Assembly (NCBI GenBank): GCA_965198165.1
Contig: OZ240244.1
Coordinates: 1,258,061-1,322,060, forward strand
Source: Candidatus Poribacteria bacterium
GTDB lineage: Bacteria > Poribacteria > WGA-4E > PCPOR2b
Reading direction: 5' to 3'
Length of the DNA: 64,000 nt
Shown here piece by piece: positions 28,599 to 50,040 of this stretch. Numbering within the stretch: position 1 is the first letter of the stretch; every line of letters begins with the position of its first letter. The position numbers were made by a program, and so were the translations under genes. Below the pieces are notes generated by a model. That model made no database searches, was not told the origin of the DNA, and saw only the letters and a list, made by a program, of their open reading frames with translations.

Positions 28599-28964
28599 GC
28601 CGAAATGATTGGCACATTATAGCACAGATACCCAAATCTCGCAAGCGTAAAACACAACATTGAGGTTGACAAAGCCAGCATGTTAGAGTAAACTAAAATC
28701 TAATTATTTGGGAAAAATCGTAAAAGCAGGTTTAATATAAAATTTGTAGTATTGTGGGCTATACCCGTTCTAGTTATCTGCGAGCAACCGAGTTTTGCCG
28801 ATCCTTGCAGGTGGAATTTTGTTTTCTCAGTTCCCTCCGCTGCAAAAGGCGTTGCGTTAGGATGGCGCGGGGATACGCCCTCTGTTGGTTTCCGTGCGTC
28901 AGTGGTATAAAACCCGTTTCAATATAAAAATTAAGCCAATTTCAGCATAAAGGGTCACGGTTGT

Positions 28965-29080
28965 GAAGCCAGGTCAGGCTGGGAAGCCAGGTCACGGCTG
29001 GGAAGCCGTTCCTACGGGGTCACGGCTGGGAAGCCGTTCCTACAAGGTCACGGCTGGGAAGCCGTTCCTACAAGGTTGCT
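28965..29080. repeat. tandem repeat, about 28-bp unit (ccgttcctaca(a/g)ggtcacggctgggaag) x3-4, plus 17-bp x2 at 29145-29180
   Basis: Direct inspection. No unique spacers. Confidence 0.8.
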
Positions 29081-32623: not shown

Positions 32624-33892
32624 ATGAAAAGCCTATATCTTTCTTCACTACGAGGAATTATCGGCGATTGGGAGTACTTTCCGTGTTTAATGAAATTCAG
32701 AGATATTGCTGAAAGAGTAAACTTAGCAGAAGAAATCTATGAGAGCAAAACCCTAAGTGAGCTAGTGGAGCGGGAGCTCCGTCAAAATCGCGGCAAAGAG
32801 ATAAAAGCATATCTGATTCAACAAGAACAACGCTTTGTCAATTCCTTAATCGTTGCAGTTTACGAAGGGGCCCCCAATTGGTATGGAATAACCAACCTGA
32901 AGCCAAACAGCATATTAGAGGTCAATACAATACCTGATGAGATCGTCGAAAATGTTGGATTTCTATGCTTGAGTGGTGGCGAGAGGCTTTTTACACTGGA
33001 CGGACAAGACAGGTTGGTGGGCATTAAAGACGCTGTGAAAGAGAATCCTGAGCTGGGTGACGACGAATTGACAGTCATCTTTATCGCTCATAATACAGAT
33101 TCGGCGGGCAAAGAGAGAAGTCGGAGGCTTTTCACAACATTAAACAAGAACGATAAACTTGTTTCAAAAGGGGGGATTATTGCTCTTGACGAGGATGATA
33201 CAATGGCTATTATCGCCCGGCGGTTGGTTATGGAAAATCCCATGTTTATGGAAAAACGCATCTTGAACAATGCCACCAATAATATACCACCTAGCAATTC
33301 TACTTGCCTAACAACGATTGGGAATCTGTACGATCTGCTCGGAATCCTTTTTACGAAAATCTATGTTATATCGAAAAAAAAGAGACAAGCAGATATAAAA
33401 GAGGAATTGACGAAAACGAGGTTAAGTGATAAAATTCTTGATAAGCACTACAAAAACGCTGGCGATTATTTTACGAGACTCGCATATAGCTTCGCTCCGT
33501 TGACCGAGTTTTGCACCGCCTCCGATTATTCTGCGGTCGTCAAAAAATACAGAAATCCAGAGGGTGGCAGTATTCTGTTTCGCCCAATCGGATTGACAAT
33601 TATCACTGAAATTGTTTCAACGCTGGTCAAGAAATACCCATTGGATAGGTGCTTCGAGTTGGTTTCAAAATTGCCTACTGATCTGACAGCAGAACCTTAT
33701 AACGGTGTTATCTGGCATCTAACGCGAAAGCGGATGACGGGTGGGAAAACTCTCGTCAGAAATCTTTTGCTGTATATGTTGGATGCGTATGATGGGGATG
33801 AAGATAAACTGCACCAAGATTACGCAAAAGCATTAGGGGTAGAACAGAACAAAATCCAGCTTCCTGTATCTGTGATTAAGTGTGTGTCCTGA
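32624..33892 (+). CDS. DGQHR domain protein (DndB/DpdB-like, ParB/Srx-fold), paralog 1
   Basis: FTLDGQDRLVGIK motif. 422 aa. The C-terminal two-thirds are near-identical at DNA level to paralog 2. Confidence 0.8.
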   Translation: MKSLYLSSLRGIIGDWEYFPCLMKFRDIAERVNLAEEIYESKTLSELVERELRQNRGKEIKAYLIQQEQRFVNSLIVAVYEGAPNWYGITNLKPNSILEVNTIPDEIVENVGFLCLSGGERLFTLDGQDRLVGIKDAVKENPELGDDELTVIFIAHNTDSAGKERSRRLFTTLNKNDKLVSKGGIIALDEDDTMAIIARRLVMENPMFMEKRILNNATNNIPPSNSTCLTTIGNLYDLLGILFTKIYVISKKKRQADIKEELTKTRLSDKILDKHYKNAGDYFTRLAYSFAPLTEFCTASDYSAVVKKYRNPEGGSILFRPIGLTIITEIVSTLVKKYPLDRCFELVSKLPTDLTAEPYNGVIWHLTRKRMTGGKTLVRNLLLYMLDAYDGDEDKLHQDYAKALGVEQNKIQLPVSVIKCVS

Positions 33893-33983
33893 GAATCACT
33901 ACCCAGGAGCAGGTCACCAAAATGCGCGGCAACAGGATAGGGAATCTGGTAGACTTGTTGTAGGAGTAGATACGGATTAGGCA

Positions 33984-34493
33984 GTGACAGGAAATGCTAT
34001 GGCACATTATGATGTGGTGAGTCAGCAAAAAGAGGTAAGAATCTATCAGACGAATTTCCTTCTTTGGAAAACACAATGGGATGCTTACACTGACCCGCCG
34101 ATTCCATTGGATTGGAAATGCGTGAAGTTTGAAGAAAATAACATAAACCAGGTTCCTACCGAGAAAGGAGTTTATGCTTTTTTCATTGAGCCAAGACTTG
34201 CCAAATTTCCATCGCACGGCTATTTAGCATATATCGGACAGACAGGATATAAGAGCGAGCGTAACTTGCGAAAGAGATTTGGGGATTATCTCCAAGACAA
34301 AAAGAGATCCAAAAGAGTACGAGTCAATTTAATGTTGAATACATGGGAAGACTATCTGTATTTTTATTACGCTGAAGTTGATCCGGCTCTGGATTTAAGA
34401 CAACTAGAACAAATGCTGTTAGATACTTTCACGCCCCCTTTCGTTGAGCGAGGACATTCAACGCACATAAGTGACATAATCAAAGGAATATGA
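33984..34493 (+). CDS. GIY-YIG nuclease family protein
   Basis: EKGVYAFF...GYLAYIGQTG...NLRKRFGDY matches GIY-(10-11)-YIG plus the conserved Arg. Its stop overlaps the next start (ATGA). Confidence 0.7.
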   Translation: MTGNAMAHYDVVSQQKEVRIYQTNFLLWKTQWDAYTDPPIPLDWKCVKFEENNINQVPTEKGVYAFFIEPRLAKFPSHGYLAYIGQTGYKSERNLRKRFGDYLQDKKRSKRVRVNLMLNTWEDYLYFYYAEVDPALDLRQLEQMLLDTFTPPFVERGHSTHISDIIKGI

Positions 34494-35758
34494 TGATGGA
34501 AAGACTATATCTTTCTTCGCTAAGAGGTCTAATCGGTGATTGGGTGTATTATCCTGCCCTAGTGAAACTCAAGGTTATTGCTGAACGGGTGAGTATCGCT
34601 GAAGAGATTTATCAAAGCCCAGCCTTGAGCAAAATGGTACAGAGATGGATAAAAAGGAATGGTGGTAGGGAGATAAAAAATTATCTCCTCAAACAAAAAG
34701 AGCGTTTCTTTAATTCACTAATCGTAGCAGTCTATGAAGGAGAGCCCGATTGGCATGCGATTACTCGTGTTGACAGCAACAATCCATTGGTAGATGCCGA
34801 GGACATCCCCGACGATGTAGTTGCTGGAATTGGATTTCTCAGTTTGAGCGGCGACGAAAAACTATTCACACTTGATGGGCAACACCGACTTATAGGAATT
34901 AAGGAAGCTGTGGAGGAAGACCCTGAACTGGGCGAAGAAGAATTGACGGTAATATTTATCGCCCATCGCACAGATGAAGCAGGAATGGAAAGAAGTCGGA
35001 GGCTTTTCACAACATTAAACAAGAACGATAAACTTGTTTCAAAAGGGGAGATTATTGCTCTTGACGAGGATGATACAATGGCTATCATTGCTCGGCGGTT
35101 GGTTATGGAAAATCCCATGTTTATGGAAGACCGCATCTTGAACAATGCCACCAGTAATATACCACCCAGCAATTCTACTTGCCTTACGACCATTGGGAAT
35201 CTGTACGATCTGCTCGGAATCCTATTCACAAAAATCTATGTTGTATCGAAAAACAAGCGGCTGGCAAAGATAAAAGAGGAATTGACCCAAACGCGGTTAA
35301 GCGATGAAATCCTTGGTCAGCACTACAAAAACGCTTGCGATTATTTTACGAGACTCGCATATAGCTTCGTTCCGTTGACCGAGTTTTGCACCGCCTCCGA
35401 TTATTCTGCGGTCGTCAAAAAATACAGAAATCCAGAGGGTGGCAGTATTCTTTTTCGCCCAATCGGATTGACAATTATCACTGAAATTGTTTCAACGCTG
35501 GTCAAGAAATACCCATTGGATAGGTGCTTCGAGTTGGTTTCAAAATTGCCTACTGATCTGACAGCAGAACCTTATAAGGGTGTTATCTGGCATCCAACGC
35601 GAAAGCGGATGACGGGTGGGAAAACTCTCGTCAGAAATCTTTTGCTCTATATGTTAGATGCGTATGATGGGGATGAAGATAAACTACATCAAGATTACGC
35701 GAAAGCATTAGGGGCACCCCAGTTGCTACCTGTTCCATACAAACTAAAACAGGGTTGA
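34490..35758 (+). CDS. DGQHR domain protein, paralog 2
   Basis: FTLDGQHRLIGIK. 422 aa. Translationally coupled to the GIY-YIG gene. Confidence 0.8.
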   Translation: MMMERLYLSSLRGLIGDWVYYPALVKLKVIAERVSIAEEIYQSPALSKMVQRWIKRNGGREIKNYLLKQKERFFNSLIVAVYEGEPDWHAITRVDSNNPLVDAEDIPDDVVAGIGFLSLSGDEKLFTLDGQHRLIGIKEAVEEDPELGEEELTVIFIAHRTDEAGMERSRRLFTTLNKNDKLVSKGEIIALDEDDTMAIIARRLVMENPMFMEDRILNNATSNIPPSNSTCLTTIGNLYDLLGILFTKIYVVSKNKRLAKIKEELTQTRLSDEILGQHYKNACDYFTRLAYSFVPLTEFCTASDYSAVVKKYRNPEGGSILFRPIGLTIITEIVSTLVKKYPLDRCFELVSKLPTDLTAEPYKGVIWHPTRKRMTGGKTLVRNLLLYMLDAYDGDEDKLHQDYAKALGAPQLLPVPYKLKQG

Positions 35759-35904
35759 TATAACCGACAACCTCACATATAATATTAAGCAGGTTTAAGA
35801 ATAAAAGTTTCGATTCCGATTCCAAAGAAATCAAGTTTTTGCAAGGGACGGGCGGGGGGACCCCGCCCCTACGGGTTCAAGAATGTGAAAATTACTATTA
35901 AAAC

Positions 35905-36777
35905 TTGCTTATTATGGCACAACAATATGATAGCGTCTCAAAATATATCATCTCGGCGTATCCGCAAGCGATGGCAAAACTGGTCTTCAGCAGTCAAACC
36001 GTCGAAGTGCAGGAAACCCTCTCTACTGAGCAGATTATTGTCGATGTCGGCTACACCGATATCACCCTCAGGGTGAAACGTCCTGATGGCACATTAGCTA
36101 CGCTCCACATTGAGGTGCAAACCCGCGATAGCCAGGAACCGATGCCGTTGCGGATGGCAGCGTATCATGGATACCTGCTTAGAGAGTATAAGATGCCCGT
36201 CTGCGGCTGTGTTATTTATCTTGCCCCGAATGCTGGCAAAACCGACCCCGGTCACTATACCTATGAATGGGACGGGTACCAGTATCTGATGCAGTACAAG
36301 GTGATACGATTGATTGAGATAGATGGGCAAGCGATTTTGGAAACGCAGGACCCCGGTTTACTACCACTCACGCCTTTGATGAAACGGCCTAATGATATGG
36401 ATGCCGATCGCTGGTTGGACGAATGTGTTAAAGCGACCAAGGCGGCAGCCGTGGCACCGGAGGTTTTGCCCAATTTATTGGCGGTTTTGAGTATCTTTAG
36501 CAGTTTGGTTTATGACTCTGAACAGATTAACCAACACATCCCGGAGGTCATGATGCACGAATTTCCGTTAGTCCAACACTTTATTGAACAAGGGATTAAG
36601 CAAGGGCGTCAAGAAGGGCATCAAGAAGGGCGCCAAGAAGGTACTGAGCAAGCCCTGACAGCAATTGCGATTGCCATGCTGAACGATAATCAACCGATTG
36701 ATACGATTGTCAAATACACCGGCTTATCTGAAGCGGAGATTAAACAATTAACCGAATCGGTTGATTCAACGACCTAA
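35905..36777 (+). CDS. Rpn/YhgA-like PD-(D/E)XK recombination-promoting nuclease / putative transposase
   Basis: C-terminal QGRQEGHQEGRQEG repeat. Family-typical tail ...IDTIVKYTGLSEAEIKQL. The likely start is the ATG at 35914; the ORF track uses TTG at 35905. Confidence 0.7.
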   Translation: MLIMAQQYDSVSKYIISAYPQAMAKLVFSSQTVEVQETLSTEQIIVDVGYTDITLRVKRPDGTLATLHIEVQTRDSQEPMPLRMAAYHGYLLREYKMPVCGCVIYLAPNAGKTDPGHYTYEWDGYQYLMQYKVIRLIEIDGQAILETQDPGLLPLTPLMKRPNDMDADRWLDECVKATKAAAVAPEVLPNLLAVLSIFSSLVYDSEQINQHIPEVMMHEFPLVQHFIEQGIKQGRQEGHQEGRQEGTEQALTAIAIAMLNDNQPIDTIVKYTGLSEAEIKQLTESVDSTT

Positions 36778-36872
36778 GCCTAACCCCTTTTCAAACAGAC
36801 TCTGAACACAGGTGCGAATAGTATGCAAGGGCTTGGATTGGGCGATCCAACCCGAACGACTGGCAGATCAGA

Positions 36873-36908
36873 AAAGCCCCAACCATATCAAATGGCTGGG
36901 GCTTTTTG
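36873..36908 (+). terminator. rho-independent terminator
   Basis: aaaagccccaaccatatcaaatggctggggctttttg is a GC stem plus T-run. A duplicate lies at 37344-37380. Confidence 0.7.
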
Positions 36909-36960
36909 AATAACGGGTTCGACCCGGGTTGCCCTCTACACGGTAGATTATCGCTTAGGT

Positions 36961-37248
36961 ATGTACGAAAATGACTCTGAACAGATTAACCAACACATCC
37001 CGGAGGTCATGATGCACGAATTTCCGTTAGTCCAACACTTTATTGAGCAAGGTATTGAACAAGGGATTAAGCAAGGGCGTCAAGAAGGGCATCAAGAAGG
37101 GCGCCAAGAAGGTACTGAGCAAGCCCTGACAGCAATTGCGATTGCCATGCTGAACGATAATCAACCGCTTGATACGATTGTCAAATACACCGGCTTATCT
37201 GAAGCGGAGATTGAACAATTAACCGAATCGGTTGATTCAACGACCTAA
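36961..37248 (+). CDS. free-standing Rpn C-terminal fragment ORF (95 aa), possibly an RpnS-like small protein or a pseudogene
   Basis: Near-identical to the last about 90 aa of the 35905..36777 protein. Preceded by the duplicated terminator block. Confidence 0.4.
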   Translation: MYENDSEQINQHIPEVMMHEFPLVQHFIEQGIEQGIKQGRQEGHQEGRQEGTEQALTAIAIAMLNDNQPLDTIVKYTGLSEAEIEQLTESVDSTT

Positions 37249-37489
37249 GCCTAACCCCTTTTCAAACAGACTCCGAACACAGGTGCGAATAGTATGCAAG
37301 GGCTTGGATTGGGCAATCCAATCCGAACGACTGGCAGATCAGAAAAGCCCCAACCATATCAAATGGCTAGGGCTTTTTGAATAACGGGTTCAACCCGGGT
37401 TGCCCTCTACACGGTAGATTATCGCTTAGGTATGTACGAAAATCTATGCTCCCTCCGCAAAAAAGAACGCAGCGGACATAAAAGATGGA

Positions 37490-37966
37490 TTGACTAAAAC
37501 ACGATTCAGTGATAAAATTCTTGATACGCACTACAAAAACGCTTGCGATTATTTTACGAGACTCACAGATAGCTTCGCTCCGTTGACCGAGTTTTGCACC
37601 GCCTCCGATTATTCTGCGGTCGTTAAAAAATACAGAAATCCAGAGGGTGGCAGTATTCTTTTTCGCCCAATCGGATTGACAATTATCACTGAAATTGTTT
37701 CAACGCTGGTCAAGAAATACCCATTGGATAGGTGCTTTGAGTTGGTTTCAAAATTGCCTACTGATTTGACAGCAGAACCTTATAACGGTGTTATCTGGCA
37801 TCCAACGCGAAAGCGGATGACGGGTGGGAAAACTCTCGTCAGAAATCTTTTGCTCTATATGTTAGATGCGTATGATGGGGATGAAGATAAACTGCACCAA
37901 GATTACGCAAAAGCATTAGGGGCACCCCAGTTGCTACCTGTTCCATACAAACTAAAACAGGGTTGA
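37490..37966 (+). pseudogene. DGQHR paralog-2 C-terminal fragment (158 aa)
   Basis: Near-identical to the C-terminus of 34490..35758. The N-terminal DGQHR motif region is absent. Confidence 0.6.
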
Positions 37967-37988
37967 TATAACCGACAATCAGTATCTG

Positions 37989-38501
37989 ATGCAGTACAAG
38001 GTGATACGATTGATTGAGATAGATGGGCAAGCGATTCTGGAAACGCAGGACCCCGGTTTACTACCACTCACGCCTTTGATGAAACGGCCTAATGATATGG
38101 ATGCCGATCGCTGGTTGGACGAATGTGTTAAAGCGACCAAGGCGGCAGACGTGGCACCGGAGGTTTTGCCCAATTTATTGGCGGTTTTGAGTATCTTTAG
38201 CAGTTTGGTTTATGACTCTGAACAGATTAACCAACACATCCCGGAGGTCATGATGCACGAATTTCCGTTAGTCCAACACTTTATTGAGCAAGGTATTGAA
38301 CAAGGGATTAAGCAAGGGCGTCAAGAAGGGCATCAAGAAGGGCACCAAGAAGGGCGCCAAGAAGGTACTGAGCAAGCCCTGACAGCAATTGCGATTGCCA
38401 TGCTGAACGATAATCAACCGATTGATACGATTGTCAAATACACCGGCTTATCTGAAGCGGAGATTAAACAATTAACCGAATCGGTTGATTCAACGACCTA
38501 A
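37989..38501 (+). CDS. Rpn C-terminal half fragment ORF (170 aa) with one extra HQEG repeat unit
   Basis: Matches residues about 125-290 of the 35905..36777 protein. The junction at 37966-37990 fuses the DGQHR 3' end to Rpn internal sequence. Confidence 0.4.
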   Translation: MQYKVIRLIEIDGQAILETQDPGLLPLTPLMKRPNDMDADRWLDECVKATKAADVAPEVLPNLLAVLSIFSSLVYDSEQINQHIPEVMMHEFPLVQHFIEQGIEQGIKQGRQEGHQEGHQEGRQEGTEQALTAIAIAMLNDNQPIDTIVKYTGLSEAEIKQLTESVDSTT

Positions 38502-38632
38502 GCCTAACCCCTTTTCAAACAGACTCCGAACACAGGTGCGAATAGTATGCAAGGGCTTGGATTGGGCAATCCAATCCGAACGACTCGGGGTGGAAAAGAA
38601 TCAAATCCATCTTCCTGTATCTGTGATTAAGT

Positions 38633-39625
38633 GTGTGTCCTAAGAATCACTGCCAAAGTATCACGAAAAATATGTCCCCCGATATCCTACAAAACTATGT
38701 CCAAAGGATGGAACGCTTGCGAATAGACAGGGCGCACGGAGACGCTCCTCACAAGCCTCTCCTCCTGTTGGCAGTCATTGAACTGATTGAGCAAGGACAG
38801 ATTCACGAAAATAGGATCCACCTCTCCCCAGATTTGGCTGAGACCTTCATGAAATATTGGTCAACAGTAACGAATCGAAGGACCAATATCGCCTTGCCAT
38901 TTTTCCACTTAAGAGGTGATGAATTCTGGCATCTCCATCCAAATCCTGGATACGAAACAGCCTTGAACGTCGCCAGTCGAATCAGAGGGATTTCTCGCCT
39001 TCGCGAAGTTATTGCGTATGCGAGTTTGGATGACGACCTTTTTGTTTTACTCACTAATCCCCTGCATCGAGAAGTCATCCGCCAAACCCTTATCCAAACC
39101 TATCTTTCGGATTTCGAGCAAGAGATCGAAAGTCTCCTTGCAGAAGAACAGCAGATTGGAGAATATAGGGCTTTGCTAATCCGACAAAGCGAACTTCCCT
39201 TTTCATCTCAGGAACCAACAGCACCAATCCAAGCAGAAACTTCAATTCGTGACGCGGGTTTCCGTCAAGCAATCATGGGATTGTACAATTACACCTGCGC
39301 TGTCTGTGAGTTGCGTATTGTCACAATGGACGGAGAAAGTGCGACTGACGCTGCCCACATCATTCCCTTTAGTCTTTCGCAGAATGACGATGTACGAAAT
39401 GGAATTTCTCTGTGCAAATTGCACCATTGGGCTTTTGACAAAGGATTAATTTCCTTGAGCGAGACCTATCAAGTTATTGTTTCGGTGCTTATGTCCGATC
39501 AGCGTCCAACGGAGGACAGGCTAACTGAACTGCGCGATAGATCTATATTGTTGCCCGAACACAATCAACTATACCCTGCCCAAGATGCCTTGGAGTGGCA
39601 TCGTGAGGAAGTGCTTAGACAGTAA
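38633..39625 (+). CDS. HNH endonuclease with an N-terminal recognition-like domain
   Basis: HNH core CAVCEL...AHIIPF...NGISLCKLHHWAFDKG. The N-terminal 230 aa, uncharacterised, contain GDAPHKPLLLLAVIELIEQG. Confidence 0.75.
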   Translation: MCPKNHCQSITKNMSPDILQNYVQRMERLRIDRAHGDAPHKPLLLLAVIELIEQGQIHENRIHLSPDLAETFMKYWSTVTNRRTNIALPFFHLRGDEFWHLHPNPGYETALNVASRIRGISRLREVIAYASLDDDLFVLLTNPLHREVIRQTLIQTYLSDFEQEIESLLAEEQQIGEYRALLIRQSELPFSSQEPTAPIQAETSIRDAGFRQAIMGLYNYTCAVCELRIVTMDGESATDAAHIIPFSLSQNDDVRNGISLCKLHHWAFDKGLISLSETYQVIVSVLMSDQRPTEDRLTELRDRSILLPEHNQLYPAQDALEWHREEVLRQ

Positions 39626-39678
39626 CTTAATACGATCCTCAATGAAGCTCTTAACCACTAAAATAGATGAGGTGCTCT

Positions 39679-41265
39679 ATGGGTAACTGGCACAAAATTA
39701 AGGTCAGTTCAAAAATATTGGGGCACATTAGTGGAGGCATATATCGTAGCCCCGCTGATGCGATAAAAGAATTAGTCAGTAATGCGTTTGATGCCGATGC
39801 GACTCGTGTTGCGATTACCACGAATTGGCCGAGCTTCGATATCATCACATGCCGTGACAATGGCAGTGGGATGGAGCAAGAGAAGTTTGAAAGGATAATG
39901 ACTCAGGAAATCGGCGAAAGCACGAAGCGGGTTGCAACTGATGGGAACCCTAATGATGTGACAGAGCTGGGTAGACCAATAATTGGGTGGTTAGGGATTG
40001 GTATGTTGGGAATTGCTCAAATTTGTCGCGAGTTCAGAGTTATATCGCATCATAAGGAGACTCAAACGGCTTTTAGGGCAAGGGTACGTTTGGAGGATTT
40101 CCTCCGTGAAAAAGTGAGTGATATTCCACCAGACCCCGTCGTCCAGCAGTCAATCAACGTTGGGGAATTTATGGTCGAACCGATTGACTATGAACCGGAC
40201 AACGCAGGCACTTATGTGATTGCCTCGCGGGTGCGCTCGGCTTTTCTGAGGCAATTTCGAGCAACTGTAGGCGAAGAGCGGTTGCCATCAAAATTTTCAG
40301 CATTTTTGAAGACCATCCACCGCGCCAGATCTGTGAAAGCTCTCGGTGACTATTGGCAGATGGTTTGGGAGCTAACTGTGGCATGTCCAGTTCCCTACGC
40401 CGAGGCAGGTCCCTTTGATTGGGATAAAATTGAGGTAGAACCGAAACTCAAAAAACGGTTAATTGACCTGCAAGAAACATTAAGAGCGTACCAATTTCAG
40501 GTAGTTGTTGATGGTTTATCGTTACGCAAGCCGAATCAATATCCACTTGCCGCTCCGCAAATACCAAAGCATAAACAAACAACAGGAAAGTTATTCTCTG
40601 TCAATAAAGAGGGAGAAGTATATGGGCAGACTTTCAAATTATCTGGCTACATTTACTTGCAAAATGGTCACGCAGTTGAACCGATGGAACTACGTGGCTT
40701 GTTGGTAAGAATACGAAACACCGCTATCGGGACTTACGACCCAACTCTCTTTACATACCCGAGCATTCCGGCACCGTGTTTCAATTGGTTATCCGGTGAA
40801 ATCTATGTTGAAAAGGGCTTGGAATTCGCGCTAAACATAGACAGGGACAGTTTCAATGAGATGCATCCTCACTTCGTGAAACTCAAAGAGATTATCCACA
40901 ATTTGCTCAAGCAGGAAGTTTTTCCCGAAGCACACCGAGGCCAAAGAAAAAGGTCTCAAGGAATACATGAGGATAGGGAAAATACAAAACGAGCCATCCT
41001 CAAATCTTTAATTCGTCAAGAGCTCGGCGGCGATTATGTACTCACTCGAACAGATGAAAAACCATTTCCCCTGACAATTGATACAGTTCAAGACATGATA
41101 TTCGAGAACAATCAAAGCCCCTTATTACCTAACGCTAAAAGCAAACGGGAACTCATACAACGCATCGCGTATGCCTTTGAAATTTCTATGGAAGCTCCAG
41201 AGGACAAACGTAGGGAAAAATTTTACCTGCTACTATCAGAGTTCGTAAAGTTAGGTTTGTTGTAA
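39679..41265 (+). CDS. GHKL-superfamily ATPase (HATPase_c_3-like)
   Basis: N-box ELVSNAFDADAT. G1 box CRDNGSGM. Length and architecture are typical of defence-associated MORC/HATPase proteins. The ATG at 39679 (MGNWHK) is likelier than the one at 39667. Confidence 0.7.
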   Translation: MGNWHKIKVSSKILGHISGGIYRSPADAIKELVSNAFDADATRVAITTNWPSFDIITCRDNGSGMEQEKFERIMTQEIGESTKRVATDGNPNDVTELGRPIIGWLGIGMLGIAQICREFRVISHHKETQTAFRARVRLEDFLREKVSDIPPDPVVQQSINVGEFMVEPIDYEPDNAGTYVIASRVRSAFLRQFRATVGEERLPSKFSAFLKTIHRARSVKALGDYWQMVWELTVACPVPYAEAGPFDWDKIEVEPKLKKRLIDLQETLRAYQFQVVVDGLSLRKPNQYPLAAPQIPKHKQTTGKLFSVNKEGEVYGQTFKLSGYIYLQNGHAVEPMELRGLLVRIRNTAIGTYDPTLFTYPSIPAPCFNWLSGEIYVEKGLEFALNIDRDSFNEMHPHFVKLKEIIHNLLKQEVFPEAHRGQRKRSQGIHEDRENTKRAILKSLIRQELGGDYVLTRTDEKPFPLTIDTVQDMIFENNQSPLLPNAKSKRELIQRIAYAFEISMEAPEDKRREKFYLLLSEFVKLGLL

Positions 41266-41286
41266 ACTCTATAGGAGCCTGCATAG

Positions 41287-42396
41287 ATGAATCACATCAA
41301 TTTTGAAACAGATCTTCCCAAACATTACGTCAGAAGATACGGATGGTTGCGGGCTATTCAGCAACAAAAACAGGCAATCAGAAAACGGTCAAAAAGGATT
41401 CCCTTGCGCTATTTTACGTTCTGTGCAGAAGATGCAATTGATGTCTTTATGTTAGAACGCGAGGAAATTCTTAAAAGGTCAGAGGAAACAGGGTACCTAG
41501 AAGGTGTCTACTTTTGTGAGGAGGACCTTGAGAAGTTCGGGAAAATAGCTAATTTAATAGGCTCCGCTGAACAAGGGTTTCAAGGCGCATTTGAAAAGAT
41601 TGTACTGTTTGAGGACGATGAAGAAACAACGGGGAAAACATTGGAAGATGAGGATTCTTATCCACCTGAGATCCACGAAAAGCTTATATTCAAAGATGCA
41701 CATCATCGCTTACATGAAGCGTTCCCATTCGATATTATCAACCTTGACGTGTTTGGTGTCATGTTTCCCGCCAGAAAGGGGATTATAACACCCCTTCTGG
41801 AATCAATTATTCAAATTTTAGAGTGGCAAACGGAATCAAGGTTTTCAATCAACAATCGCGAATGCGACCAATTCACGTTATTTCTTACCTCTCACATTGA
41901 TCCAGATCTGACAGATCAAACCGCAATACAACAACTTGAAAATCGAGTCATTGACAATATCAGTACGAGTGTGGATTTTGAATCTGCTTTTGTCAAGCAA
42001 TATGGACACAATCAAGTTCAGAAACTCGTAAGTGAGAATTTCGCCGAATTTTTCTGCGTCGCCCTTCCGAAATTTATGATTTATCAGGCCCTATTTGAGC
42101 TCGGGTGGCAAGTCACCTGTGGCCCGACATATTTGTATAATCGTGATGACAGGTGGATGGAAAATAAGCAGTATCAAATTATGCACACGGTTTCAGTTTA
42201 TGAACGTATTCCCAACTTTCAAAAACGTCTTGATGCTCCCAGTGCAGGTCAATATATTCAGTTAGTCACCCAACTTGTCAATGATGGCGTTGAATGGGTG
42301 GATGATGTTATAGCAAATCCTGATATCAACCGGGAATTAAAGGAAGATCTGGAAGGGATTGTCGAATTGAGAAATCGGTATCAGAGACCGCAATAG
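41287..42396 (+). CDS. hypothetical protein (369 aa), probable partner of the GHKL ATPase
   Basis: Long ORF, 22 bp after the ATPase stop. No motif I can assign with confidence. Confidence 0.5.
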   Translation: MNHINFETDLPKHYVRRYGWLRAIQQQKQAIRKRSKRIPLRYFTFCAEDAIDVFMLEREEILKRSEETGYLEGVYFCEEDLEKFGKIANLIGSAEQGFQGAFEKIVLFEDDEETTGKTLEDEDSYPPEIHEKLIFKDAHHRLHEAFPFDIINLDVFGVMFPARKGIITPLLESIIQILEWQTESRFSINNRECDQFTLFLTSHIDPDLTDQTAIQQLENRVIDNISTSVDFESAFVKQYGHNQVQKLVSENFAEFFCVALPKFMIYQALFELGWQVTCGPTYLYNRDDRWMENKQYQIMHTVSVYERIPNFQKRLDAPSAGQYIQLVTQLVNDGVEWVDDVIANPDINRELKEDLEGIVELRNRYQRPQ

Positions 42397-42415
42397 TTTC
42401 AGTCGCAAGACTTAA

Positions 42416-43099
42416 TCACTCTCCACGTTTTTCCAACCCCACCTCAATCAATTTTGCCGTTGAGGTTGGGATGCCGACCACTTCAATCTGGGCGGTCTGA
42501 TATGCCTCCTTTTTAACCGTGACAATTGAAGCGAGATCTGCCCAGATTGTAACTTCAAATTTTCCTTCCGAATTTGAGATACTCTCCAGGATGCTACAGA
42601 TACCCTCTGTACACTCGACACGAATTGATGCGCCAGCAATCGGGGCTCCGCTGTCGGCATCAAACACGGTTCCGATGAGGCGGGTTGGAATATATTTCCC
42701 GGTCTCTTGGGGGTAGATAATCGCACGGCCTACGTCGGTTGTTTCGCCTGCTATAACTTCTACGTTTTTGAGGGCACTGTTCGTCGTGTAACCGGGTGCC
42801 GTGACGTGAAGTTGATAGGTGCCAGCGGTGAGATTGTCAATCTCAAAGACCCCGTCTTTAACCCTGACAACGGTGATAACTTCCCCGTCTTGTAACACTG
42901 TTACTTCTGCGTCGGTAACGGTGATTGGTGAAATATTGCCGAAAATTGAGCCTGTCGCGTGTTGCGCCTCAAGATGCTCATCTGTTCTTTCACCTTCCGC
43001 GCAACCAATGACCCATACCATCCCGATCAGTCCGCTCAAAGTACAACAGCACACCAACCGATCCCAGCCTTGAGGTTGCGAATGTGACGTACGGTTCAA
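42416..43099 (-). CDS. lipoprotein with carboxypeptidase-regulatory-like (CarbopepD_reg) beta-sandwich domains
   Basis: Lipobox VIGC. Two NLTAGTYQL-type transthyretin-like repeats. Confidence 0.6.
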   Translation of the reverse strand: MNRTSHSQPQGWDRLVCCCTLSGLIGMVWVIGCAEGERTDEHLEAQHATGSIFGNISPITVTDAEVTVLQDGEVITVVRVKDGVFEIDNLTAGTYQLHVTAPGYTTNSALKNVEVIAGETTDVGRAIIYPQETGKYIPTRLIGTVFDADSGAPIAGASIRVECTEGICSILESISNSEGKFEVTIWADLASIVTVKKEAYQTAQIEVVGIPTSTAKLIEVGLEKRGE

Positions 43100-44187
43100 A
43101 ACTGAATTACTCCTCGTGCCACTTCTCCGTTCAGCATGGCGGTAAAGGCTTCGTTGACTTCCTCCAGTTGATAGGTTCGTGTGACCAGTTCATCTAACTT
43201 GAGCACACCGGCACGATAGAGCGCAAGCAAACGGGGCATGTCGTAGCGCGGACGTGCGGAGCCGTAATTACTGCCCATCACGGTTTTTTCGCCCCAAAAG
43301 ACGATGCTGGCATCAAGGGAAATCGGTTCACGGGGTGGAGCACCAATCCAGATTGCCTTCCCGCGATTCCGAATGGCACGCACTGTCTGTTCGTAGGTTA
43401 TCTTTGTACCAATTGCCTCGAACGCGTAATCCGCCCCTAAGCCATCGGTCAAGTCTTGAATCTCGGCGATGACATCCCCTTCGCTGGCATTAATCGTATG
43501 GGTTGCCCCGAACTGCCGTGCGAATTCCAATTTCGAGTCCATTATATCCACAGCGATGATTCTCTCTGCCCCAGCGATGACCGCGCCTTGAAGCACATTC
43601 AAGCCAATCCCGCCCGCACCGAAAACGACGACACTGCTTCCCGGTCGGACTTGGGCGGTATTCGTCGCTGCACAAACTCCTGTCGTGACACTACATCCGA
43701 CTAGAGCTGCCTTATCCAACGGCATCTCTTTATCGATCGGAATCGCGCATTCTTGCGGGATTACGCTGTACTCGGCGAAGGACGCAACCATCCCAAAATG
43801 GTGGATAGCCACTCCGTTCTTGCTGTAGCGGGTCGTGCCGTCGGGAAGGTTTCCGCGTCCGCCCTTTCTCGAATTGAGGCAGATATTGGCGTAGCCTTGC
43901 GTACAGTATATACAGTGACCGCAGGATGGCACCCACGAGAGAATGACGTGGTCACCGGGCTTGACCAGAGTAACCCCTTTTCCAACTTCCGCAACGACCC
44001 CGGCACCCTCGTCGCCCAATACGACGGGAAGAGGTATATCGAGTTTGCCGGTGACAGCGTGGTAACAACTATGACAAACGCCTGTCGCCGCTACTTTCAC
44101 AACGATTTCGCCTGCTTTGGGGGCTTGCATTTCAATGTCTTCAACGACAACAGGTTGATTTAATTCATACAGAACAGCAGCTTTCAT
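43096..44187 (-). CDS. zinc-dependent alcohol dehydrogenase (MDR family)
   Basis: GVCHSCYH..GDEGAGVV zinc motif and a GAGGIGL Rossmann motif. Confidence 0.9.
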   Translation of the reverse strand: MKAAVLYELNQPVVVEDIEMQAPKAGEIVVKVAATGVCHSCYHAVTGKLDIPLPVVLGDEGAGVVAEVGKGVTLVKPGDHVILSWVPSCGHCIYCTQGYANICLNSRKGGRGNLPDGTTRYSKNGVAIHHFGMVASFAEYSVIPQECAIPIDKEMPLDKAALVGCSVTTGVCAATNTAQVRPGSSVVVFGAGGIGLNVLQGAVIAGAERIIAVDIMDSKLEFARQFGATHTINASEGDVIAEIQDLTDGLGADYAFEAIGTKITYEQTVRAIRNRGKAIWIGAPPREPISLDASIVFWGEKTVMGSNYGSARPRYDMPRLLALYRAGVLKLDELVTRTYQLEEVNEAFTAMLNGEVARGVIQF

Positions 44188-44213
44188 AGCTCCTCCTTGT
44201 CTAGTTTCTCAGG

Positions 44214-44245
44214 GATCTGCTGGATTTGTCAATCCAGCAGGAGCA
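44214..44245. repeat. 32-bp perfect palindrome (gctcctgctggatt-tgtc-aatccagcaggagc family)
   Basis: See 16030-16053. A degenerate second copy lies at 44296-44316. Confidence 0.7.
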
Positions 44246-44332
44246 CTATGGGGGATTAGAAACCGAGTTTTGAGGAAAAAACTTGGTTTCTCACAGGGAT
44301 TTGGCAATCTAGCAGGAGCGGTGTGGAGAATG

Positions 44333-45139
44333 TTACTCTTCCGCTTCTTCGCCCAAGAGTTCCGCTAACTCCCCTAAGAGGTCTCGCTCTTCGTCCTCAT
44401 CCGTTTCATCTACGTCATCGTCGTGACGGTTTCTGCGTTGTTCCAATCCCTCCTCCACTGATTCAAGGTCTGACCGAAATTCGATTAGGTTGCTCAGATA
44501 CCGTTCGCGTGTGATATTCTCTGCCTCGCCGTAGCCTTCGCGTAGACATTCGCCACAAAATTGTCCGATGCGTTGAATTCCCAAATCGATCTGCCTTAAC
44601 GCTTCCTCCTCGTCGCCTTCCCTGAGACTGAGTTCGGCATTCGCAATCCCACTCATCATTAGCATGTAGCCTTTGTATTGGTAGTGTTGCCACGCGATGG
44701 CTGGAGGCGCGTATTTGCGGGCGAAATCCGTAGCGGCAATGTTGGTCTCGGTATCCCGCTTGACATCAGTCCAGCGTTTGATTGATGCGAAATGTAAATA
44801 CCTAATGTATCGGTCAGTGGATTCATCAAATAGAGAACGCCAATCCTCTGGCGTTAATCGAAATCCTTCATCGCTACCGTGCTGATTTTTATAATCCGCA
44901 AGTTGGTCGTGAAAGTATTCATAGTAGGACTCGCGCCCGTGCGGTTTTGTGCCATCTGGACGGCCGGAGGCGTAAAGACGCATGAGCGTAAACGCATTCG
45001 CCTGTATAATAACGACCTCCCTGCCATCTGCAAGTGATAAGACTTGAACAGGTTGGACAGCATCAAATGACAGACTCTCCAGAACTTTATCTAGCGTTTG
45101 CATTAGATGTGTGTTTCTTTCAATAACATTGTTTGGCAT
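44333..45139 (-). CDS. hypothetical protein with an acidic C-terminal tail
   Basis: 268-aa ORF. The C-terminus is D/E-rich (DDDVDETDEDEERD). No assignable family. Confidence 0.5.
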   Translation of the reverse strand: MPNNVIERNTHLMQTLDKVLESLSFDAVQPVQVLSLADGREVVIIQANAFTLMRLYASGRPDGTKPHGRESYYEYFHDQLADYKNQHGSDEGFRLTPEDWRSLFDESTDRYIRYLHFASIKRWTDVKRDTETNIAATDFARKYAPPAIAWQHYQYKGYMLMMSGIANAELSLREGDEEEALRQIDLGIQRIGQFCGECLREGYGEAENITRERYLSNLIEFRSDLESVEEGLEQRRNRHDDDVDETDEDEERDLLGELAELLGEEAEE

Positions 45140-45249
45140 TTCTCACCTCTCCTGAAAAAAATGATATATGTGAACGGAAAATGAATTCCTCCAACAGATA
45201 GCCCGCAAATTCTCCCATTCACAGCTTCGTAAATTCTCTGATTTGTGAA

Positions 45250-48200
45250 TCACACCTCCTGATAATAATCTTGAACGGGTACGACGGAAGCCTTACCACG
45301 ACGGAGCGCGTCAATGCCGTTGACAGCGGCCGCCGCGCCTGAAATCGTCGTAAAAATTGGGATGTTGTGTTCTATTGAAAGCTTCCGAATCAACTGTTCG
45401 CTCGGTTGGTGTGCATATCCCGTTGGGGTGTTGATGATAATATCTATCGCGTTATTTTTGACGTAATCTTGAATTGTCGGTCGTCCTTTTCCGATGCTAT
45501 GGACTAATCCAACCTTCAGACCGTTTCGGCGAAGTACCCTCGCTGTCCCGTGGGTCGCGATGAGTTGAAATCCCATATCATGCAGTTTTTGGGCGATAAA
45601 GATAACGGTGCGCTTGTCCTTGTTCTTTACGCTGATAAAGGCACGTCCCTCGAATGGTAGCCCGGAGCCAATCGCTTTTTGGGCTTTCGTGAAGGCGATG
45701 CTGAGGTCTGAATCAATGCCCATGACTTCACCCGTTGATTTCATTTCAGGGCCGAGTTGCGAATCCGCGCCCGGAAAGCGGTTGAATGGGAAAACGGGGG
45801 CTTTCACACTGAAATAATCGGGTTCGATCTCTTTGGTAAATCCAAGTTCTGTAAGGGACTTCCCTGCCATGATGCGCGCCGCAAGTTTTGCCAATGGCAC
45901 ACCAATCGCTTTGCTGACAAAAGGAATTGTCCGTGATGCCCGCGGGTTGACTTCAAGCACATAGATCTGGTCATTTTTAATTGCATACTGGACATTCATC
46001 AGTCCACAGACGTTCAGTGCCTTCGCGAGGGCGTAGGTATACTCTTTTAGGGCATCGAGCTGCTCCTCAACGAGGGTATACGGGGGTAGAACGCAGTCGC
46101 TGTCACCAGAGTGGATGCCGGCTTCCTCAATATGCTCCATAATACCGCCCACCACGGTAATTTCTCCATCGGAGATCGCGTCCACATCAACCTCAATGGC
46201 ATCCTCGACATATTTGTCAATCAGTACCGGATGCGCTGGCGAAACGGCAACCGCTGAACGCATGTATTCAGCCAAGCCCGTATCATCGTAAACGATTTGC
46301 ATCGCTCTGCCGCCGAGCACATACGACGGCCGCACCATGACAGGGTATCCAACGGACTCGGCAATCGGCTTTGCCTCTTCGAGGCAGGTCGCTGTACCAT
46401 TCGGCGGTTGCGTCAATCCGATTTTGTCTAGCACCTCCTTAAATAACTTCCGGTCCTCACTTCGGGCAATGTCATCCGACCCCGTTCCGATAATTGGAAC
46501 GCCTGCGTCTTTAAGGGCCATTGCGAGATTCAGCGGTGTTTGCCCCCCGAACTGAACAATGACACCCATCGGCTGTTCGCGGTCAACGATGTTGAGGACA
46601 TCTTCATAAGTCAGCGGTTCAAAATAGAGTCGGTCGGAGGTATCGTAGTCTGTACTGACGGTCTCAGGGTTGCTGTTGACCATGATTGTTTCATAGCCAT
46701 CCTCTTTCAGCGCGAGGGTTGCGTGAACGCAACAGTAATCAAATTCAATTCCCTGACCGATCCGATTCGGGCCACCGCCCAATATCATGATTTTCTGCTT
46801 ATTGGTCGGACGAACCTCATCCTCGCTGCTGTAGGTCGCGTAGTAATACGGCGTTTCGGCTTCAAACTCAGCCGCACAGGTGTCTACGGTCTTAAAAGTC
46901 GCTTCGAGCCCGTGCGCGTTCCGTTGCCTCCTCACATCTTCCTCTGAAGCATTCCACATTTCGGCAATTTGCCGGTCTGAAAAGCCGAGCTGTTTTGCGT
47001 TCCGAAGCGTTGACAGTATCTCGTGGTCCCACTCGCCTTCGATCGGATAGTTTTGAAGGTCAGCCGCAAGTGCCTCCTCAGCATCAACCAGTTCTTTGAT
47101 ATTATACAGGAAAAATGGGTCAATATGTGTATAATTATAAATCTGTTCAACACTCATTGCACGTTGCAACGCCTGCTTAATGTAAAAGATTCGTTCAACG
47201 TTTGGAATCGTCAGTTTCTGGGGGAGTTCAGAGAGCGGCAATGTTTCGAGTGGGTGATTATCAAGCCCGTACCACCCCGCTTCTAGTGACCGCAAGCCCT
47301 TCTGCAAGGCTTCCTTGAACGTTCTGCCAATCGCCATTGCCTCACCTACGGACTTCATCTGGGTCGTTAGGGTTTGGTCTGTGCCATTAAATTTCTGGAA
47401 ATCCCAACGCGGGATTTTGACAACGACGTAGTCGATAGTCGGCTCAAAGCTGGCAGGGGTCTGGCGGGTAATATCGTTAGGGATTTCATCAAGGGTGTAC
47501 CCAACCGCCAGTTTCGCTGCGATTTTCGCAATCGGGAATCCGGTGGCTTTGGAGGCGAGTGCGGAGCTCCGGGAGACGCGCGGGTTCATTTCAATGACAA
47601 CCTGCTGTCCCGTATCTGGGTTGACAGCGAATTGGATGTTGGAGCCGCCGGTGTCAACCCCAATCTCACGGATAATCTGGATGGCCGCGTCTCGCATCTG
47701 TTGATACTCTTTGTCGGTCAAGGTTTGGGCGGGTGCGACCGTTATGCTATCACCGGTATGAACTCCCATCGCATCAACATTTTCAATCGAGCAGATGATG
47801 ACGACGTTATCGGCATGGTCGCGCATCACCTCAAGCTCATACTCTTTCCACCCGATTACCGATTCCTCAATGAGCACCTCATTGACCGGACTTAACGCCA
47901 CCCCGTGTGCGACCATCTGTCGAAATTCCTCGATATTATACGCAATCCCACCGCCCGTGCCGCCAAGGGTAAACGCCGGACGGATAATCGCCGGGTAACC
48001 GATCATTGTGATGAATGCCACCGCGTCTTCAACGGAATGAGCAATGCCGCTCTTAGGTACAGCCAACCCGATTTCCTGCATCGCCTTTTTGAACAACTCC
48101 CGGTCTTCTGCCTTCTTAATCGCATCCAGCTTCGCGCCAATCAGCTCCACATCGTATTTGTCAAGCACCCCCGCCTCTGCGACCTCGACAGAGACATTGA

Positions 48201-48486
48201 GGCCCGTCTGCCCCCCTATAGTTGGGAGCAACGCCTGCGGACGCTCTTGGGCGATAATCTGTTCAACCACATCTGCGGAGATCGGCTCGATGTACGTCCG
48301 ATCCGAGAATTCGGGGTCTGTCATGATTGTAGCGGGGTTGCTGTTGACAAGCACCACCTGATAGCCTTCTTCTTTCAGGGCTTTACAGGCTTGAGTCCCG
48401 GAATAATCAAACTCACACGCTTGACCGATAATAATCGGCCCGGAGCCGATAATCAAGATCTTTTCGATGTCAGTTCGTTTTGGCAT
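45250..48486 (-). CDS. carB: carbamoyl-phosphate synthase large subunit
   Basis: 1078 aa. Duplicated ATP-grasp halves. N-terminus [33 protein letters not shown]. Confidence 0.95.
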
Positions 48487-48685
48487 AATATGTCATAATG
48501 AGTCAACCCTGATTTTCGTGGAATCCTTCAATCGGAAATTGAAAGAATTGAAGATAGGAAGGGGAATCCGTTACCCTTGTGTGTCGAGTCATCCTGCCAC
48601 CCGAAGGACGGGTGATTCGGAAGCCTGTTCACGCCCCAAATGCAAAGTTTCCTCCTGAAGCTTGCTTAAAAAAACTTGGGATAAC

Positions 48686-49816
48686 TCACGCTTCTCCCTT
48701 CATCAGATTGGTGAATTTTGCGAAGAGGTAGCTTGCGTCGTGTGGGCCCGGGGCTGCCTCTGGATGATATTGCACAGAAAAGACCGGGTGTTCCTTGTGT
48801 TCAAAACCTTCGAGCGTTTGGTCGTTTAAGTTGATGTGGGTAATTTCTACAGCATTCGGGAGCGAATCAATATCCACGCAGAACCCGTGATTTTGCGAGG
48901 TAATCTCTACTTGGTCAGTTTCAAATCGTTTGACAGGTTGGTTCACCCCCCGATGTCCGAATTTCAGTTTGAAAGTCTTTCCACCTAAAGCAAGCCCTAA
49001 GAATTGGTGCCCCAAGCAGATACCGAAGAGCGGCTTTTTACCGATGAGTTGCCGCACGGTCTCTATTGCGTATCGAACAGGGGCCGGATCTCCGGGGCCA
49101 TTTGATAAGAAGATACCATCGGGATTGGCGGCAAGGATGTCTTGGACAGATGTGTGCGCCGGTACAACCTGCACCTGACACCCGTGTTGCGTTAACTGAC
49201 GGAGGATATTATATTTCACGCCGAAGTCCATTGCGATGACACGAAATCGCGGTTTGGGCGGTGTCTCAACGGATGTTAGCAGTTGCCCATTGAGCACATC
49301 TGCCCCCGGCTGATTCCACGCATAGGGACTGGGACAGGTGACATATTGAACAAGGTCGTGCCCGACCAATCCGTGCCACGCCTGCGCTTTGGCGACGAGC
49401 CGTTCAGCGTCAAGGCTCTCTGTTGAGAGCACACCATCCATCACCCCATGCACCCTAAGCCGCTTCGTCAACGCACGGGTATCAATCCCCTGGATACCGA
49501 TGATTCGATTTTCTTCAAGATAGTCGCCCAAGCTCCAATTGGCGCGCCAGTTGCTGTGATGGCCACTGTATTCCCGCACGACGAACCCTTCAACCTGAAC
49601 CTGCATTGATTCAACATCAATCGTGTTGCAACCGTAGTTTCCAATCAACGGATAGGTCATTGTCACAATCTGTCCTTTGTAGGACGGATCGGTGAGCACT
49701 TCCTGATAGCCGGTCATGCTTGTATTGAAAACCACTTCGCCTTCCGTTTCGCCCGTTGCGCCGAAGTGTTCGCCTTCAAAAATTGTCCCGTCTGCTAATG
49801 CTAGAATTGCTTTCAT
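48686..49816 (-). CDS. carA: carbamoyl-phosphate synthase small subunit (glutamine amidotransferase)
   Basis: CarA-type N-terminus [23 protein letters not shown]. GATase catalytic Cys (GICLGHQ). The ORF is open upstream to 49909, but the conserved start is at 49816. Confidence 0.9.
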
Positions 49817-49835
49817 ACGTTTTATTGAGATTAGA

Positions 49836-50040
49836 AACCGAGTTTTTTGCGTCAAGTCATCTGAAGACAGATGGGCAGATGACTGCGCGCATCTTGTGCG
49901 CTCGCTCACGCGATGCGCTCGCTCACGTGCGTCAAGTCATCTTGTGCGCTCGCTCACGCGATGCGCTCGCTCACGTGCGTCAAGTCATCTTGTGCGCTCG
50001 CTCACGCGACCATCCGTCCTCGGACCACCCGCAAGGGTCG
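49836..50040. repeat. composite repeat: MITE fragment plus inverted 118-bp-family sequence plus 48-bp tandem (tgcgctcgctcacgcgatgcgctcgctcacgtgcgtcaagtcatcttg x2)
   Basis: Direct inspection. Shares gcgctcgctcac and ccatccgtcctcgga with the 8690-9030 satellite, in reverse complement. Confidence 0.75.

Follow-up and report, generated by a model that had tools for sequence, protein, structure and literature searches.

A putative phosphorothioate-reading nuclease beside a MORC-like ATPase and its methyltransferase-shaped partner in a variable defence island of a Poribacteria sponge symbiont

Candidatus Poribacteria, a sponge symbiont, carries in assembly GCA_965198165.1 (contig OZ240244.1, positions 1,258,061-1,322,060) a stretch of 64,000 nucleotides (nt) that was analysed in its entirety and is referred to here as the window. 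Three consecutive genes on its plus strand are the subject of this work: the first encodes a nuclease with a sulfur-binding domain (SBD) and an HNH core (38633-39625, an open reading frame of 330 amino acids (aa)), the second a GHKL ATPase (39667-41265, 532 aa), and the third a partner protein of the PP_RS20740 family (41287-42396, 369 aa). The intergenic gaps measure 41 nt and 21 nt respectively, and a promoter/terminator consensus scan, whose hits did not rise above the shuffled expectation, returned no terminator-like site between the three genes. The nuclease probably starts at Met14 (38672), which gives the 317 aa seen in more than 100 homologues, while the ATPase probably starts at Met5, its second ATG (39679), which gives the 528 aa of most of its homologues and is preceded by GAGGTG. 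The three genes make up the right end of a low-GC island (~32.5-42.4 kb; GC 0.42-0.46 against 0.50-0.53 in the flanks) within a hotspot bounded by an SPFH/Band_7 gene on one side and a CarboxypepD_reg-ADH-carB block on the other. A first-pass annotation of the same DNA had described the three reading frames and a number of motifs within them, all of which are indeed present on the plus strand, with Pfam confirming HNH_2 and HATPase_c_3; the defence setting it proposed is likewise apparent, the genes being part of a defence island. The locus is a mosaic of defence genes centred on phosphorothioate (PT) marks, and we place at roughly one half the probability that the three genes form an operon-like, PT-centred restriction module in a hypervariable defence hotspot.

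The nuclease contains an N-terminal SBD at residues 20-157 of the 330-aa frame (38690-39103, plus strand), which in a phmmer search matches SBDHga1 (PDB 8H0L) with an E value of 1.2e-21. The sulfur cavity of SBDHga is formed by H25, K26, L75, P76 and H79, with backbone contacts from R70 and N72 (PMC10602919), and the HMMER alignment places the same residue in the window protein at each of the seven positions (H40, K41, L88, P89, H92, R83 and N85). The domain had earlier been suspected to be a modification reader of some kind; the match and the preserved cavity bear this out and point to PT as the mark. Towards the C-terminus lies an HNH core (residues 222-275; 39296-39457, plus strand; Pfam HNH_2, 9.6e-13). 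The protein contains GDAPHKPLLLLAVIELIEQG, CAVCEL at residue 222, AHIIPF at residue 241 and NGISLCKLHHWAFDKG at residue 256, and the HNH signature is complete, with CAVC, AHIIPF and NGISLCKLHH present along with the Cys/His metal site and the catalytic His and Asn. The NCBIfam model NF045808 (PT-DNA_restrict) aligns over the full length with an E value of 8e-41, its 140 bits falling below the cut-off of 180; by sequence this sub-threshold score is that of a divergent Poribacteria subfamily which still belongs to the superfamily. The PADLOC HNH model matches at 1.2e-20, and the 1081 SBD-HNH homologues, mostly of 317 aa, carry Pfam PF26340 (DNA-SBD_ScoMcrA) and PF13391. Judged by this homology, the protein is predicted to belong to a known family, the PT-dependent type IV restriction endonucleases, and within it to the two-domain form resembling SprMcrA. 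It shares with the ScoMcrA, SprMcrA and SBDHga enzymes an N-terminal sulfur-binding winged-helix domain, the full SBDHga cavity set and a C-terminal HNH_2 domain, but unlike ScoMcrA it has no SRA domain. Homology, together with the loss of dndE where such nucleases meet dnd genes (described below), suggests that the SBD-HNH protein restricts PT-marked DNA. Viral contigs yielded only distant relatives of it. One solitary homologue, 67% identical (L121:8001-8957), has neighbours that mostly lack annotation, one of which, ~2.5 kb away, shows a weak P22_portal match; this may be a prophage, which would suggest that mobile elements also carry the nuclease.

The product of the second gene contains ELVSNAFDADAT at residue 35 and DNGSGM at residue 64, and is covered by Pfam HATPase_c_3 over residues 29-150 (2.2e-14). 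The residues of its N-box, G1 and G2 motifs (E35, D42, D64, G66, G68, G107, G110 and G112) do not vary among 35 homologues, and an S5-fold transducer domain follows the GHKL domain. On these sequence features we assign the protein to the MORC/MutL-type GHKL+S5 ATPases, and within them it is predicted to be paraMORC-like. Its last ~130 aa match no family, and the PADLOC and NCBIfam models touch only its N-terminus, and weakly (BbrUII/HgiDII type II enzymes (REase_II), MutL and MzaB). Its homologues number 786, and no relatives of it were found in viral contigs. Two candidate affiliations were rejected, namely the HEF_HK/Response_reg_2 paraMORC relatives (PMC8011034), whose architecture differs, and the VcSduA-type GHKL-Shedu proteins, as the DUF4263 nuclease is lacking. 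C-terminally shortened GHKL proteins (~450 aa) are common (hits P0322-P0329, several of them clusters of up to 32 members), and in one such case (L124:8001-9356) a vestige of the original 3' end (AAGTTTGTTGTAG) persists past the new stop codon.

The third protein had been left without an assignable family by the first-pass annotation, a gap that can now be closed. Its homologues carry Pfam PF28273 'PP_RS20740' in 120 of 120 cases among the matches listed, the identical P0001 included, according to precomputed assignments. NCBIfam NF047698 matches the partner at 2e-20 with 73 bits against a cut-off of 200, and by sequence we consider the protein a member of PF28273 and not of this narrow equivalog. 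The PF28273-type family is of modest size, with 440 clusters at 50% identity (E<=1e-3); the partner has no sequence match in PDB and none in the Pfam or PADLOC copies searched, tblastn found no relatives of it in plasmids, and looking up its exact sequence (P0001) returned no contig. The fold is that of a class-I, Rossmann-like seven-strand methyltransferase of Trm1-like kind. Among 73 diverse partner sequences, 93-100% retain a YFTFCA..A.D that resembles motif I and a PFD..NLD that resembles motif IV, while the acidic residue of beta2 and the aromatic residue of motif IV show no conservation across the family. Motif IV of Trm1 reads DLDPFG, and the corresponding region of the partner, FDIINLDVFG, is Trm1-like; the class-I Rossmann fold is thus shared with the Trm1/RsmD N-methyltransferases, although sequence identity to them amounts to just 12-14%. 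As such, the partner is best described as a methyltransferase-shaped protein with putative methyltransferase activity. The one paper found to name PP_RS20740 calls it a hypothetical protein in a furfural-tolerance screen, and for this reason we rejected it as a characterised gene.

The distribution of the ATPase and the partner was followed in two sets of loci. A partner-centred scan with one genome per species returned 25 loci, comprising 20 from Candidatus Poribacteria, one from an uncultured bacterium, and one each from Acidobacteriota, Trueperaceae, Anaerolineales and Ignavibacteria; a GHKL-centred scan of metagenome contigs added 80 loci of greater divergence (32-58% identity). Where there is room for it, the gene immediately before that of the partner encodes the ATPase in every genome locus (24 of 24), and the partner comes next after the ATPase in all but one of the metagenome loci with room (62 of 63). 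The two are a near-obligate, tightly conserved pair, and the co-occurrence that the earlier annotation had proposed to check is amply present. A DndC homologue is found within 10 kb of the partner in 24 of the 25 genome loci, the exception being the Trueperaceae locus with a PAPS_reduct-SMC-DUF87 cluster instead. A PbeA/PbeC/PbeD-like cluster is also found in most of the Poribacteria loci, where the pair sits between dndCDE and pbeDCBA. In 51 of 62 metagenome loci an N6/N4 methylase is encoded ahead of the ATPase in the same orientation, and in five more it adjoins the ATPase on the other strand; this upstream enzyme is of ~410-440 aa and alpha-class, with DPFCGTGT and SPPYP motifs (Pfam N6_N4_Mtase, 3.4e-9). 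The full methylase-GHKL-partner triad is present in 42 of the 52 metagenome loci with room and is widespread in soil, peat and sediment (L042-L117; e.g. L088:4062-8066). No further gene around these triads is common to more than four loci, and therefore the conserved unit includes no nuclease gene. Two operons (L028:7120-11026 and L106:4736-8648), set among housekeeping neighbours and with overlapping start and stop codons, encode DndC, the ATPase and the partner; their DndC proteins pass TIGR03183 (399-413 bits against a cut-off of 290), the dndC gene overlaps the GHKL start codon, and DndD and DndE are absent from both. In such DndC-only operons the pair might take over from DndD-DndE as the scanning apparatus. 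The general pattern is that of a DNA modifier followed by the GHKL ATPase and the partner, the modifier being an N6/N4 methylase, DndC alone, or DndCDE. At one locus (L008:4202-8193) a SNF2 helicase, ParB_N, HTH_ParB and an unassigned 339-aa protein lie between dndE and the pair, in the place that pbeABCD occupies in other islands, and a dndE-GHKL gap of equal size (4.3 kb) is seen in L017 and L027.

The genes flanking the window locus occurred at none of the 30 loci first compared, and synteny was confined to the closest relatives. In L031, whose partner is 83% identical, the CarbReg gene is followed by dndC-dndD-dndE-GHKL-partner, by pbeD-C-B-A, and by Rpn/DGQHR fragments. L036 and L037, with flanks 98-99% identical, have SPFH-DGQHR(-GIY-DGQHR)-Rpn-SBD-HNH-GHKL and then a Trypsin_2-like gene; in L034, SBD-HNH and GHKL are followed by an empty third-gene slot; in L033 (97% identical over 37994-41266), convergent dndD and dndC come after SBD-HNH, GHKL and the trypsin-like gene, and dndE is lacking; and L123 (97.4% identical over 37988-49913) has the same three genes as the window in the same order, with no full DGQHR gene. 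At a second hotspot, L002, L003 and L032 hold dndCDE-GHKL-partner-pbe, and in L118-L120 an SBD-HNH gene replaces the stretch from dndE to pbeA, with dndC and dndD remaining (dndD being split in L119). PT-writer and PT-reader cassettes alternate, then, at two hotspots. Furthermore, the trio is found in L124 in the order GHKL-partner-SBD-HNH, with gaps of 35 and 18 nt and identities of 72%, 70% and 63% respectively; here the genomic context is unrelated, no modifier is present, and the SBD cavity residues are kept. L125 is 100% identical to L124, and both are counted as one arrangement. The trio recurs in two gene orders, and the co-conservation of the three genes that had been set as a check on the first-pass annotation is accordingly found in L123 and in L124/L125. 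An SBD-HNH homologue (P0239) and a shortened GHKL homologue (P0338) list the same longest contig (2,537,461 bp) and may represent a third genome with the two genes linked; no other large-contig identifier is common to the dnd-type GHKL/PP_RS20740 lists and the top 120 SBD-HNH matches.

Two features of these relatives bear upon how the cassettes have been exchanged. The first is that dndE is missing wherever SBD-HNH adjoins dnd genes (L033 and L118-L120), the SBD-HNH cassette ending 17-26 nt from the convergent dndD stop codon (8001-12473 in L118-L120, 682-7681 in L033), and the dndD-dndE spacer may be a recurrent recombination junction, seen as it is at two chromosomal hotspots. DndE is required for PT modification, and its loss beside SBD-HNH is consistent with a nuclease that is incompatible with PT modification of the cell's own DNA. 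The second is that the third gene occupies a swappable slot (41266-42402, delimited by blastn and junction alignment). Homology to L036, L037, L033 and L034 breaks off with the GHKL stop codon (41266) and is regained at 42403-42413, and the slot contains the PP_RS20740 gene in the window and L123, the Trypsin_2-like gene in L033, L036 and L037, and nothing in L034. The window's partner is closest to that of a dnd-type cassette (L031, 83% aa identity) and its ATPase to those of SBD-HNH-type cassettes (95%); because the two are closest to different cassette types, this comparison of sequences indicates a probable recent recombination at the GHKL stop codon. The Trypsin_2-like protein (247 aa; L033:3425-4165, L036/L037:12684-13427; 150-nt gap after GHKL) may act as an alternative effector or simply be cargo without relation to the module. 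Linkage of the HNH and GHKL genes is observed in seven loci, and the HNH stop codon overlaps the GHKL start by 8 nt in L036 and L037. Against the nearest relatives, the ratio of nonsynonymous to synonymous substitution (dN/dS) is 0.33-0.38 for the nuclease, 0.14-0.25 for the ATPase and 0.26-0.27 for the partner, with 0.01-0.04 for the flanking genes ADH and carB. Within the SBD-HNH context, with no modifier nearby, the ATPase is under purifying selection at a dN/dS of 0.14-0.20.

Given these arrangements, it is reasonable to postulate a mechanism in which the SBD would bury the sulfur of a PT linkage and the HNH domain would cut nearby DNA, while a dimer of the ATPase would serve as an ATP-gated DNA clamp, or as a matchmaker, for whichever DNA enzyme is encoded alongside. 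In the window's lineage a PT writer would have been exchanged for a PT reader-nuclease, and the module would restrict incoming PT-marked DNA, such as that of phage propagated on sister strains that possess dnd. The MORC-like ATPase may license or extend cleavage, as MutL does for MutH or Vsr, and the methyltransferase-fold partner would be an accessory that is apparently dispensable in the SBD-HNH context. That the ATPase works with the adjacent enzyme is suggested by the MutL-MutH/Vsr analogy and by the paraMORC proposal of 2008 (PMC2292703). The likeness to MutL-MutH, MutL-Vsr and McrBC is one of functional analogy only, the window having neither a MutS-like sensor nor an AAA+ GTPase. In a broader form of this interpretation, which we advance tentatively and at somewhat less than even odds, the GHKL ATPase and PP_RS20740 would constitute an undescribed two-protein 'engine' for interchangeable DNA enzymes (an N6/N4 methylase, DndC alone with the pair standing in for DndD-DndE, DndCDE, or a PT-reading HNH nuclease). 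They would then define a new MORC-based, modification-linked immune class, the PT-writer and PT-reader versions of which segregate as alternative hotspot alleles in sponge-symbiont populations.

A number of observations weigh against the three genes acting as a single module. SBD-HNH is found at none of the 25 partner-centred genome loci and at none of the 80 GHKL-centred metagenome loci, and no GHKL gene stands beside SBD-HNH in L118-L121. In modules that are otherwise identical, the partner is missing (L034) or a trypsin-like gene is there instead (L033, L036 and L037), and the acidic residue E78 of the partner, the putative contact to the ribose of S-adenosylmethionine, varies in the soil clade. 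No nuclease, helicase or translocase domain was detected in the ATPase or the partner, and while no DndC, DndD or DndE homologue lies anywhere in the 64-kb window, the rest of the genome may hold dnd. Characterised SBD-HNH enzymes cleave PT-DNA unaided in vitro. The coupling of SBD-HNH to the GHKL-partner pair is putative. The pair elsewhere mostly goes with a DNA modifier, and SBD-HNH often stands alone; the trio therefore combines two modules in a manner restricted to a lineage.

The most serious alternative is that the genes are independent neighbours: an autonomous type IV SBD-HNH enzyme and a separate GHKL-partner module, or an orphaned Dnd/Pbe remnant, which recombination at the hotspot has juxtaposed. 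The solitary SBD-HNH genes of L118-L121 would be expected of such a history, as would the attachment of the pair to methylase or Dnd genes, and not to HNH genes, in 105 other loci. The island is furthermore a patchwork of duplications and swaps in which the third gene is exchangeable, and the derivation of the partner from dnd-type and of the ATPase from SBD-HNH-type cassettes, with its implied recent recombination at the GHKL stop codon, is of a piece with this. Mere juxtaposition accounts less readily for the tight linkage of the HNH and GHKL genes at seven loci (their codons overlap in L036 and L037), for purifying selection on an ATPase without a nearby modifier, or for the independent reappearance of the trio with its genes reordered and in different genomic surroundings. 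We judge independence to be somewhat unlikely overall, and it nevertheless remains a strong rival.

It is a good deal less probable that the GHKL-partner pair is the restriction half of a restriction-modification-like (R-M-like) or Dnd-like system, attacking unmodified DNA in the manner of DndFGH, SspE or DndI, beside an unrelated type IV enzyme. The layout of modifier, ATPase and third protein does resemble the logic of R-M and BREX systems, paraMORC ATPases have been predicted as R-M components (PMC2292703), and the N-terminus of the ATPase weakly matches the model of the GHKL-containing BbrUII/HgiDII restriction enzymes. However, no modifier adjoins the pair or the ATPase in the window, in L123 or in L034-L037, where a PT-dependent nuclease should in any case preclude self PT modification; a module attacking unmodified DNA would there be autoimmune, and yet the ATPase is under purifying selection. 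The lack of a detectable nuclease domain in either protein argues in the same direction, and the DndC-only triads without DndD and DndE suggest that the pair aids the modifier. Last, that the DGQHR (DndB/DpdB-like) proteins encoded upstream form one modification-sensing restriction complex with the HNH, GHKL and partner proteins, as the first-pass annotation had envisaged, appears highly improbable. In its favour, all these genes share a strand and a low-GC island, GIY-YIG-like and DGQHR genes also flank the dnd/pbe/GHKL-partner island of L014, and Dnd neighbourhoods are known to harbour DndB-like and URI nucleases (PMC10853773). Against it, the otherwise identical modules of L123 and L034 have no full-length DGQHR gene, that of L036 has one, and none is called near the L124 trio; Rpn-like genes and pseudogene fragments lie between the DGQHR and HNH genes, and DGQHR is not found beside the pair in at least 100 other loci.

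With respect to known systems, the preferred reading of a PT-centred restriction module draws upon two families that were already described, the SBD-HNH enzymes and the MORC-like ATPases whose presence in R-M contexts was predicted in 2008. The window nuclease differs from the SBD-HNH class in that its gene is tightly linked to that of a MORC-like ATPase. ParaMORC1 co-occurs with HNH endonucleases and has an extension beyond S5 (Iyer, Abhiman, Aravind 2008; PMC2292703), and the ATPase studied here shares with the paraMORC proteins of R-M operons the GHKL+S5 module and an association with DNA methylases. In contrast to those operons, the window system is without the SFII helicase and RE-fold nuclease partners, its constant partner is PP_RS20740, and the modifier can be DndC or DndCDE. 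The island occupies a hotspot shared with Dnd/PbeABCD islands and keeps DndB-like and URI-like genes, but dndC, dndD, dndE and pbe genes are absent from the window, and neither the ATPase nor the partner matches the Dnd, Pbe or Ssp models of PADLOC and NCBIfam. The resemblance to BREX or DISARM that had been suggested earlier finds no counterpart in PADLOC, which among the seven island proteins gave no match to PglZ, BrxC, PglX, DrmA, DrmB or DrmC, and which returned the HNH model and weak N-terminal REase_II/MzaB matches only, with nothing for the partner. Of the overall interpretation first offered, the modification-reading nuclease and the conserved pair stand, whereas the BREX/DISARM comparison and the obligatory link to DGQHR fall away.

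In the literature searched, there is no description of PP_RS20740 as a constant partner of a GHKL ATPase, of the methylase-GHKL-partner triad or its DndC- and DndCDE-linked versions, or of SBD-HNH linked to a GHKL ATPase; searches combining phosphorothioate with GHKL or MORC gave nothing relevant, and the words MORC, GHKL and HATPase are absent from a reappraisal of the Dnd neighbourhood (PMC10853773). Were the coupling true, it would offer a bacterial ATPase of the MORC type a first role open to testing, beside a defined mark-reading nuclease, the modifier-GHKL-PP_RS20740 arrangement would be a new three-gene system with no recognisable nuclease and outside the reach of PADLOC, and the DndC-GHKL-partner version, lacking DndD and DndE, would bear on how PT modification is targeted to DNA. 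Sponge metagenomes are enriched in phosphorothioation genes (PMC5099237). Strains assembled from the same samples carry either a PT-writing island or a PT-reading nuclease at the same hotspots, with dndE lost where the reader adjoins dnd, and if the coupling holds, this pattern of writers and readers is the signature expected of an arms race over a shared epigenetic mark.

The upstream part of the island (32624-38501, plus strand; delineated with Pfam, NCBIfam, phmmer and repeat families) provides context and is not obligatory to the module. It comprises, all on the plus strand, a DGQHR protein (32624-33892), a GIY-YIG-like protein (33984-34493), a second DGQHR protein (34490-35758), an Rpn-like protein (35905-36777) and duplicated fragments of Rpn and DGQHR (36961-38501; repeat families D1-D4). 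The DGQHR proteins score 57-69 bits, far below the DndB equivalog cut-off of 328. Full-length DGQHR copies number none in L123 and L034, one in L036, and two in L037 and the window, and no DndB/DGQHR family member was called within 8 kb on either side of the L124 trio; these genes are variable residents of the island and not constant partners. A 471-bp unit is repeated twice at 36512-37443, and copy number in this upstream stretch varies among the near-identical L036, L037, L034 and L123. Beyond the three genes, a perfect 48-bp tandem repeat of 2.5 copies lies on the opposite strand just upstream of carA (49890-50009) and reads as repeated peptides in spurious open reading frames. Other tandem repeats of the window include a 118-bp unit in three copies (8659-9010), units of 19 and 28 bp upstream of a HEAT-repeat gene (28953-29076), and a 24-bp unit in 3.6 copies (53302-53410) inside a minus-strand reading frame (53175-54404) that weakly resembles the Rpn-like protein.

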